A DNA stretch of 16,902 nucleotides from a virus (Duplodnaviria; Heunggongvirae; Uroviricota; Caudoviricetes). Positions 3,846 to 4,858 of this stretch are shown here, piece after piece (within the stretch, counting starts at the first letter, position 1; the number at the start of each line of letters is the position of its first letter). The notes under the pieces were generated by a model. The model saw only the letters and a list, made by a program, of their open reading frames with translations. It made no database searches and had not been told where the DNA came from. Where the stretch lies: the IMG/VR virus record IMGVR_UViG_2778260993_000018, positions 1 through 16,902 of that record; one strand, written 5' to 3'. Both the position numbers and the translations under genes were made by a program.

Positions 3846-4673
3846 TTATTTAATCTGGATAAATGGTGTATTGGCACCGCTGGTCATGTATTGCGGCAGA
3901 GTACCGTTCCACTTGTTGATGGCTTCCAGCTCCATGACGCCAGGGTTCTGGCGCAGAGCTTCACCGCGTAAACGAATAGCATCGGCCTCGGCCTGGGCTT
4001 TTGTGCGAATCGCATCTGCCTGTCCGGCAGCTTCCGCGCGCAACATGTTAGCTTCCGCTTCGCGCTGTTTTACTTCCTGTTCGCGTTGCAGGGTTTTCTG
4101 GTTCGCCGTGACTTTGGCATTAATGCTGTCGATAACGGTTGGCGGGTACTCCGGCTTACCCACATATGAGAGACTCATTACCTGAATACCGATGGGCGTC
4201 ATTTCTGCCTGAATGTCTTTAAGAGCTGCATCCAGTAGTTCAGACTTCCCGCCGTCGATAAATTTGTCAGTGGTCATTTTGCTGGCCAGTCGATTGAGTG
4301 CGTCGGCGATCTTTTGGCGCAGGTCAGTGTCGGTAATGTCATCCACGCCTTTGCGGTAGGTCTGAAACACCGTGGTAACTTTGGATGGATCAACTTTGTA
4401 GGCAACACCGATGTGATAGCCAATGGTTGTGCCGTCACTCATCTGGAAGCTGAACGGCTCATCGTAGGTCTTCATTTGTTTGAAGGTTGGGAAGATGTAA
4501 ACTTCAGTATTCCAGCCAGTCCAGTAGCGACCAACACCGACCACCTCACCGACGCCTTTATCGTCGCCCAGTTTATTTACTTTGATGCCAACATTACCGG
4601 GTTCAACGCGATCGCAGCCGACAAGGCCAATGGTCGGCAGAACAATGGCTAAAGCAAAAATAATTTTTTTCAT
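3846..4673 (-). CDS. SPFH/Band-7 (stomatin/prohibitin/HflKC-like) lipoprotein, 275 aa
   Basis: N-terminal signal peptide with lipobox (..IGLVGC..), SPFH-like core and an Ala/Glu/Gln/Arg-rich coiled-coil C-terminus. AAGGA Shine-Dalgarno. Start overlaps the stop of the upstream small membrane gene (ATGA). Confidence 0.8.
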   Translation of the reverse strand: MKKIIFALAIVLPTIGLVGCDRVEPGNVGIKVNKLGDDKGVGEVVGVGRYWTGWNTEVYIFPTFKQMKTYDEPFSFQMSDGTTIGYHIGVAYKVDPSKVTTVFQTYRKGVDDITDTDLRQKIADALNRLASKMTTDKFIDGGKSELLDAALKDIQAEMTPIGIQVMSLSYVGKPEYPPTVIDSINAKVTANQKTLQREQEVKQREAEANMLRAEAAGQADAIRTKAQAEADAIRLRGEALRQNPGVMELEAINKWNGTLPQYMTSGANTPFIQIK

Positions 4674-4858
4674 TTTTTATCCTTAGTGAAAGAAAGACCC
4701 TTGTAAATGGCATAAATGCAGGGCGGGGTCAGAAACGCCAGTGCAAAGCCAGAAATAACTGCTATCGTATCCTTCATGGATATAAGGAACGGAACGAGTA
4801 ATCCGTAAATGCATGCGATAATTGCCAGTAAAATTACTATTGTGAAATACAGTCTCAT
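4670..4858 (-). CDS. Small membrane protein with two predicted transmembrane helices, 62 aa
   Basis: Two hydrophobic segments (TIVILLAIIACIYGLLVPFLI and AVISGFALAFLTPPCIYAIY). Stop overlaps the SPFH ATG. No clear Shine-Dalgarno, so the start is uncertain. Confidence 0.5.
   Translation of the reverse strand: MRLYFTIVILLAIIACIYGLLVPFLISMKDTIAVISGFALAFLTPPCIYAIYKGLSFTKDKK

Follow-up and report, generated by a model that had tools for sequence, protein, structure and literature searches.

SPFH proteins are, to our knowledge, structurally cages, and we know of no function for most of the bacterial members and all of the phage members. Prohibitin, HflK, HflC and QmcA all work with FtsH-type AAA proteases (PMC2636767, PMC12048511). 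The 2009 classification of prokaryotic SPFH proteins (Hinderhofer et al.) predicted its prohibitin-like group, SPFH4, to face the periplasm, with no NfeD partner, and it names neither phage nor lipoprotein members (PMC2636767). Phage SPFH genes have been noticed in genome papers, two of which floated a connection between an HflK/C-like protein and CII (PMC10269572, PMC8540360), so that idea is not new. Here, we analyze such a gene in a stretch of 16,902 nucleotides (hereafter the window) from the IMG/VR virus record IMGVR_UViG_2778260993_000018, which is the left arm of a phiP27-like (Shiga-toxin-type) prophage at yecE. On the minus strand of the window, an SPFH lipoprotein gene (3846..4673, 275 residues) overlaps the gene of a 62-residue two-helix membrane protein (4670..4858), referred to below as the partner. 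The original prediction had placed both open reading frames (ORFs) at these positions and had read them as a prophage-encoded SPFH/Band-7 lipoprotein with a coiled-coil tail, overlapping a small two-helix membrane protein; this description held up throughout. Neither ORF of the pair is a chance ORF.

Our preferred reading, with a probability of about 0.5, is that the two genes form a self-contained, horizontally mobile phage cassette, which serves, in the course of infection, to assemble an SPFH cage at the periplasmic surface of the inner membrane. The window's own pair is ordinary and already catalogued: it is annotated and common, and no function is assigned to either gene. In E. coli prophages, the corresponding RefSeq entries are WP_000720013 ('SPFH domain-containing protein') and, for the partner, WP_001242072 ('hypothetical protein'). 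The phiP27 protein L05 (NP_543057) shares 99.3% amino acid identity with the SPFH protein of the window and is encoded at the same position, between the early-left genes and xis/int of a yecE-integrated Shiga-toxin-type prophage; the window differs from phiP27 in an IS110-family element downstream of the SPFH stop codon. What the analysis adds is that the partner is conserved and sometimes fused to the SPFH protein, that the family lies nearer to prohibitin than to HflK/C, and that its occurrence in lytic phages speaks against a role confined to lysogeny.

By sequence and by fold, the 275-residue protein belongs to the SPFH/Band 7 superfamily (PF01145). The Pfam Band_7 profile matched it with an E-value of 8.2e-31 (107.8 bits, cut-off 23.6; profile positions 2-176 of 176) over residues 22-208, which are encoded at 4050..4610 on the minus strand, and PHROG 200, labelled 'lipoprotein', matched with an E-value of 2.9e-114. 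The N-terminus, MKKIIFALAIVLPTIGLVGC-DR, is a lipoprotein signal peptide (residues 1-19), in which a hydrophobic stretch leads into the lipobox LVGC (residues 17-20), in agreement with the pattern [LVI][ASTVI][GAS]C. Cys20 (codon 4614..4616) is the predicted site of lipidation, and Asp21 occupies the +2 position, which in E. coli is an established Lol-avoidance, i.e., inner-membrane retention, signal. Of 103 diverse relatives, 94 retain the lipobox cysteine, and of 120 close enterobacterial homologues, 112 have aspartate at +2 (111 CDR and one CDN).

AlphaFold2 modeling of the monomer, based on a 103-sequence alignment (the query and 102 diverse relatives from the search of protein representatives), reached a predicted local distance difference test score (pLDDT) of 92.9, compared with 45.7 in a single-sequence run, and the SPFH fold named in the original prediction is present in the model. 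The SPFH1 and SPFH2 domains occupy about residues 20-175, the former β-rich and the latter of α/β type. They are followed by a coiled-coil helix of 65 residues (178-242; 3948..4142, minus strand; assigned by DSSP on the model, pLDDT 85-98), a second helix (residues 244-254) and a conserved C-terminal tail. The motif W255-N-G257-T-L-P260 in this tail (3894..3911, minus strand) is the most conserved part of the family, with W255 and G257 invariant and P260 at least 90% conserved among the 103 diverse relatives. A Foldseek search of the PDB returned full-length matches, all with a probability of 1.00, to HflK/HflC (7vhq, top, E-value about 9e-14), prohibitin, erlin, stomatin, flotillin and QmcA-YbbJ, and the helix 178-242 aligned to the CC1 helices of HflK/C, prohibitin and erlin. 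By analogy with the solved SPFH cages, this 65-residue helix would form the cage wall. In the longer homologues, Pfam revealed no additional domains that point to a function.

The likeness to HflK/C proposed in the original prediction holds at the level of the superfamily only. HflC and HflK orthology were both rejected, as the protein scored 24.7 bits against the NCBIfam equivalog TIGR01932 (cut-off 134.4) and 22.7 bits against TIGR01933 (cut-off 159.4), in each case more than 100 bits short. When the family profile was compared with the PDB, prohibitin 1 was the best match (E-value 6e-11 over most of the length), followed by HflK (2e-7), HflC (3e-6) and QmcA (1e-5); by profile, then, the protein is nearest prohibitin and not HflK/C. 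It shares the SPFH fold and the long coiled coil with the HflK/HflC-FtsH system of E. coli, and its bulk is likewise predicted to be periplasmic. However, HflK/C is a hetero-oligomer of two paralogues with N-terminal transmembrane anchors, whereas here one gene encodes a protein with a predicted lipid anchor: the signal peptide with its LVGC lipobox stands in place of the transmembrane anchor, with no stop-transfer helix, and a single ORF of the window matches the family profile, the related phage loci being likewise single. From the prohibitins, the protein differs in being phage-borne, in its predicted lipid anchor and in having a dedicated two-helix partner. The popular annotation 'HflK/C, therefore lysogeny' is not justified.

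The partner contains two transmembrane helices at about residues 3-26 and 31-52, flanked by a basic N-terminus and a basic C-terminal tail (KDKK), and is predicted by the positive-inside rule to be an inner-membrane protein with both termini in the cytoplasm. It matched PHROG 1130 ('membrane protein') with an E-value of 2.8e-23, so that members of PHROG 200 and PHROG 1130 are adjacent in the window, and it belongs to no Pfam family. Operons of SPFH and NfeD proteins (QmcA-YbbJ, YqiK-YqiJ, stomatin-STOPP) likewise carry a small membrane-protein gene ahead of the SPFH gene, an arrangement in which co-assembly is expected. Both QmcA and YqiK are oriented towards the cytoplasm. The length of NfeD proteins is about 140-150 residues, with three hydrophobic stretches and a β domain (PMC2636767). 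The search for NfeD (PF01957) that the original prediction had proposed gave no match for the partner even at E-values up to 1, and, since 62 residues with two transmembrane helices leave no space for a β domain of roughly 60 residues with the OB fold of NfeD, the partner is not an NfeD protein.

The sole conserved feature of the partner family is the short turn after helix 1, with the motif P-x-[LM]-[IVLM]-S-[AS]-x-[SD]-[ST], which reads LVPFLISMKDT in the window. Outside this motif, the partners of phage P88 and of a P1 variant are 22-26% identical to that of the window, while the SPFH proteins are 92% identical. Because conservation in the partner is restricted to the motif, we infer that this periplasmic turn is the surface that contacts the SPFH protein. 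The loci compared were 4468..5498 in P88, 3967..5011 in the P1 variant MH445380 and 3846..4858 in the window. The signal peptides of the SPFH proteins are likewise only 22-26% identical across the phiP27-type, P2-like and P1-like copies, a mosaic pattern that, as far as the alignments go, suggests either recombination within the SPFH gene or far faster drift of the partner.

The linkage of the two genes, which the original prediction had likened to the pairing of SPFH proteins with small membrane partners, proved to be real and conserved across unrelated phages. In the window, the stop codon of the partner gene and the start codon of the SPFH gene overlap as ATGA (4670..4673, minus strand), with a Shine-Dalgarno-like AAGGA (4680..4684, minus strand) 6 nt ahead of the SPFH start, both read directly from the DNA. 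A hidden Markov model (HMM) built from the partner and its relatives, in which the E-value of 7e-26 for the window partner holds by construction because its own sequence is included, identified a partner in 155 of 168 IMG/VR loci, in each case as the same-strand gene immediately preceding the SPFH gene. The spacing between the two genes was -4 in 86 of these loci, +3 in 38 and -20 in 21, and was tight in the others as well. Among the 13 remaining loci, two lay at contig edges, one (L095) was a clear member outside the spacing filter, and ten had divergent two-helix ORFs with the same motif. Counted without redundancy (clusters at 95% identity), the partner was present in 13 of 13 clusters, in 11 by HMM and in two by inspection.

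The same HMM recognised genes adjoining the SPFH genes of N4 (gp19, E-value 2e-12), P88 (gp11, 2e-10), GAP31 (GAP31_161, 2e-16), Aeromonas phage Gekk3-15 (gp57, 8e-17) and the crAss-like phage cr126 (gp043, 3e-5), as well as phiE125 gp44 weakly. It also recognised the partner ORF of the P1 variant MH445380 (4775..5011), which, like that of phiP27 (NC_003356, 3304..3492), is unannotated yet clearly present and conserved. The SPFH gene is best studied jointly with its small partner, which several reference records leave without annotation. No partner accompanies the copies found in Shigella flexneri and in Cytophagales. The S. flexneri copy (CP182556, locus L175, around position 6001) has an SPFH gene 96% identical to that of the window, preceded by unrelated sequence with no partner ORF, and may be decayed or rearranged.

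In about 20 of the best 150 representatives (clustered at 50% identity), the two proteins are fused in frame (P0005, P0009, P0012, P0017, P0023, P0024, P0027, P0029, P0043, P0047, P0050, P0054, P0056, P0108 and others), the SPFH protein bearing an N-terminal extension of 60-100 residues. The window partner matched these extensions in phmmer searches with E-values from 2e-7 to 5e-4. The fusions consist of two helices, a linker rich in lysine and arginine, a third hydrophobic segment and, in most cases, a lipobox-like cysteine. Such in-frame fusion strongly links the two proteins, and the basic linker and third hydrophobic segment would place the SPFH body outside the cytoplasm, in agreement with the topology deduced for the split genes. 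The fusions may be polyproteins, which Lgt and LspA (signal peptidase II) could process into the same two products.

To follow the distribution of the family, tblastn was run against 50,697 phage records, 661 of which contained the SPFH protein. The temperate carriers are phiP27-type Shiga-toxin phages, the P2-like P88, P1 variants and phage-plasmids, and the Burkholderia phage phiE125. The strictly lytic carriers, with identities in brackets, are N4 (62%), GAP31/Vequintavirinae (49%), Ounavirinae, Bruynoghevirus, Kayvirus (25%), crAss-like, phiCbK-like and jumbo phages; more distant homologues (24-26% identity) were detected in haloarchaeal viruses. A search of 1.84 billion representatives yielded 221 matches at E ≤1e-30 and 3011 at E ≤1e-3, and 853 of 5426 complete E. 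coli genomes (16%) contain the DNA of the gene. A scan of genome contigs gave 16 loci, and a homologue search with the coiled coil left out returned only relatives at least 79% identical. The lambdoid, P2-like and P1-like copies share 85-91% nucleotide identity, which indicates that the gene moves among unrelated phages.

The position of the cassette in these relatives is predominantly among genes for early functions. In P88, the pair is part of the early operon, where it is flanked by cox and the replication gene A, with gene overlaps of 4 bp. In GAP31, Gekk3-15, SunLIRen and crAss, the cassette or the SPFH gene is found among genes for replication or nucleotide metabolism. In N4, the pair is gp19 (membrane protein) and gp20 (lipoprotein), located after the RNAPII genes. 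The N4 pair has the overlapping two-gene layout of the window and an SPFH protein 62-63% identical, but N4 is strictly lytic, its pair stands among middle genes, its partner is only 25% identical outside the motif, and the residue at +2 is tyrosine. Kayvirus, i.e., the group of Staphylococcus phage K, has a related SPFH protein, MbpS, with a small membrane-protein gene immediately upstream, as in the window. There, mbpS and the holin-like mbpV lie in the lysis cluster between lysK and tgl (PMC7150955). MbpS differs from the window protein in being only 25% identical and anchored by a transmembrane segment, with no clear lipobox, and MbpV, which has one transmembrane helix, is not homologous to the partner. 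Since the family is abundant, compact and present in tractable phages (N4, P2-like phages and lambdoid prophages), it offers a handy entry point to phage SPFH compartments and to the question of how a virus profits from building one on the membrane of its host.

We propose that the 275-residue product would be exported, lipidated on Cys20 and kept in the inner membrane through the aspartate at +2; export, lipid anchor and Asp21 together would put the whole SPFH body on the periplasmic face of the cytoplasmic membrane. There it would oligomerise, as other SPFH proteins do, to form a ring or cage enclosing a membrane patch. The partner would provide the membrane-spanning part of the assembly, and its periplasmic turn after helix 1 would be the likely point of contact. 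The cassette would be transcribed with the early, pre-replication phage genes, and such timing would mean that it works on the envelope of the host, either upon infection or upon induction, and is not a dedicated lysogeny switch. Its target would most probably be a conserved component of the host inner membrane: very different phages carry a highly conserved SPFH body, which agrees better with a target in the host than with a contest between phages. Judging by prohibitin, HflK/C and QmcA, the foremost single candidate is an FtsH-type protease. Of the elements of this proposal, the analysis demonstrates the SPFH domain and fold, the lipobox, the conserved pairing with its fusions, the spread over phage types and the operon position in relatives.

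Several observations weigh against this proposal. The aspartate at +2 was not seen outside the enterobacterial clade, so inner-membrane retention is predicted for that clade and not for the family as a whole. The two-helix partner is not universal, as Kayvirus has the single-helix MbpV instead, and SunLIRen and Clew-1 have no recognisable partner. The expected timing of expression in the window prophage rests on gene order, and a candidate promoter (described below) could make the partner and SPFH genes, together with a small ORF ahead of them, an independently expressed moron. An HflK/C-like protein of a Pasteurella multocida prophage, possibly a relative of the present family, is detectably made in the lysogen (PMC9872710). 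Finally, we found no functional study of the phage SPFH family, of N4 gp19/gp20 or of phiP27 L05 in the literature. We regard as possible, though doubtful, a wider version of the proposal, in which the cassette would be an envelope device common to lytic and temperate phages alike: a homo-oligomeric SPFH cage on the outer side of the cytoplasmic membrane, nucleated by the periplasmic turn of a two-helix partner that is not NfeD, would seize or shield a conserved machine of the inner membrane, such as FtsH or the route of DNA entry.

The original prediction connected the pair to lysis-lysogeny decisions through FtsH, the protease that degrades CII. Such a mimic of HflK/C, whose cage would bind or enclose FtsH from the periplasmic side, alter the degradation of its substrates, such as lambda-type CII/CIII, and so bias the decision, seems rather unlikely to us. 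The signal peptide and lipobox predict the same membrane side as that of HflK/C, HflK and HflC are the top Foldseek matches, and the nearest solved relatives by profile (prohibitin, HflK, HflC and QmcA) all cooperate with FtsH-type proteases; moreover, the same idea was raised for phage CSP3 (PMC10269572) and is stated in the annotation of Gekk3-15. The missed equivalog thresholds, the single SPFH gene in place of a K/C pair and the missing N-terminal transmembrane helix nevertheless set the protein apart from HflK/C. The cassette also occurs in the obligately lytic N4, GAP31-like and crAss-like phages, which make no lysogeny decision, a point on lytic carriers also made in PMC8540360; related or distant SPFH genes are present in Kayvirus, with a different neighbour, and in haloarchaeal viruses; and in P88 the pair belongs to an early lytic operon downstream of cox. 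This distribution and placement weaken the CII idea, while a general effect on FtsH, apart from CII, is conceivable. The predicted site is also the one where incoming DNA crosses the inner membrane. For exclusion there, T4 Imm and Sp, P22 SieA, HK97 gp15 and P1 Sim are known analogues by location. Superinfection exclusion, also raised in the original prediction, in which the periplasmic SPFH assembly and its partner would block genome injection by incoming phages into infected cells or lysogens, would suit an accessory gene of patchy distribution that was recently transferred among unrelated coliphages (PMC8540360), as is typical of conflict genes, and that is carried by temperate and lytic phages alike, as exclusion genes are. 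In PHROG, the partner is classed as 'moron, auxiliary metabolic gene and host takeover', and in N4 the cassette follows gp18, annotated as 'superinfection exclusion, similar to P22 gp17', although that annotation is a database label only. We still consider exclusion distinctly unlikely: neither protein matched PADLOC-DB 2.0, no known exclusion or defence protein similar to them was found in PADLOC, Pfam or PHROG, and the SPFH protein is so well conserved (92% between phage types) that a conserved target in the host explains it more readily than an arms race does.

The Kayvirus locus, where mbpS neighbours the holin-like mbpV within the lysis cluster, brings to mind a device for lysis timing or membrane integrity, in which the cage would sequester holin-like proteins or stabilise the energised membrane and thereby prevent premature lysis or abortive collapse. 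In crAss cr126, a peptidoglycan hydrolase gene likewise lies two genes downstream, and the partner resembles class II holins in its size, two-helix layout and charged C-terminus. This explanation is nonetheless improbable, given that MbpV is not a homologue of the partner and that the cassette lies far from the lysis genes, in early regions, in the window prophage, P88, N4 and GAP31. Identity of the partner with a class II holin was rejected, as it matched no holin family of Pfam or PHROG at E-values up to 0.1-1, and its neighbours are early genes, not endolysin or spanin genes. Very improbable, in our view, is a role in lysogenic conversion, with the lipoprotein made in the lysogen and released in outer-membrane vesicles as a TLR2 agonist or virulence factor. 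Its precedent is PM0222, the 25-35 kDa HflK/C-like protein of the P. multocida prophage, which is reported to occur in vesicles, to be a TLR1/2 agonist and to add to virulence in mice (PMC9872710), and the window does belong to a Shiga-toxin-type prophage. PM0222 is at best a putative homologue of the window protein, however; the aspartate at +2 predicts retention in the inner membrane, lytic phages and phages of environmental bacteria commonly carry the cassette, and stimulation of TLR2 is a generic property of bacterial lipoproteins.

In the window, the cassette belongs to the leftward arm, with the repressor region on one side and xis/int on the other. The integrase gene (1..1287, leftward) abuts a DUF72 (yecE-type) gene in a matching genome and is followed by the excisionase gene xis (1321..1575, leftward), a DUF5406 gene (2006..2377, leftward), the IS110-family element (2386..3812) and the SPFH/partner pair (3846..4858, minus strand). 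Directly upstream of the cassette are the genes of a 190-residue (5043..5615) and a 60-residue protein (5621..5803), both on the minus strand and kept in related prophages. Neither product matched a Pfam family, and the 190-residue protein had no NCBIfam or PADLOC match either. Further along are genes of a helix-turn-helix (HTH) protein (6208..6933, leftward) and an S24/HTH repressor (7056..7835, leftward), and antirepressor-type genes start at 8144 in the rightward direction.

A scan for promoters and terminators near the cassette found no excess of sites over shuffled sequences and no clear dedicated promoter or terminator. The candidate sigma-70 promoter mentioned above, GTGACA-19 nt-TATAAT (5046..5016, minus strand), overlaps the stop codon of the 190-residue ORF and is not listed by the scan because its spacer exceeds the optimum. 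Its -35 element is invariant in 32 alleles, and its -10 element varies (AATAAT, TATAAC). An AT-rich hairpin after the 190-residue ORF was rejected, since it folds no better than shuffled sequences (z -0.9) and its stem shows no compensatory changes. Between the candidate promoter and the partner gene lies a candidate third cistron, a 35-codon ORF (MKSNRDLSRVKLLLILATVLTITEIIILFIALSVS; 4882..4989, minus strand), which would encode a single-helix membrane peptide and ends 23 nt upstream of the partner gene. It is open in 23 of 23 distinct variants from 54 related loci, one of which has ATA for the ATG start, and its substitutions are conservative; its variable sites fall on the three codon positions as 10/4/10, with no clear third-position bias, it has no good Shine-Dalgarno sequence, and it is missing upstream of the Pantoea homologue. 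From these comparisons, its coding status is uncertain.

On the other side of the cassette, a GC-rich palindrome, GCCCGGC-AGGCC-GCCGGGC (3820..3838, minus strand), starts 7 nt past the SPFH stop codon. A 71-nt stretch containing it has a folding energy of -22.9 kcal/mol (z -2.3), and the palindrome is also present in an allele free of the insertion element (L191); it is not a canonical terminator, as no U-run follows it. The IS110-family element lies 7 nt from this palindrome. It is 1427 bp long, with a transposase ORF at 2657..3676 on the minus strand (Pfam DEDD_Tnp_IS110 and Transposase_20) and sub-terminal inverted repeats of 13 bp (ATGAACGCATCCC / GGGATGCGTTCAT). The element entered the 40-nt spacer that separates the DUF5406 gene from the SPFH stop codon, at a point 33 nt downstream of the latter, which leaves the SPFH/partner pair untouched and separates it from the downstream DUF5406-xis-int genes. 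The corresponding empty site is present in E. coli UC4224.

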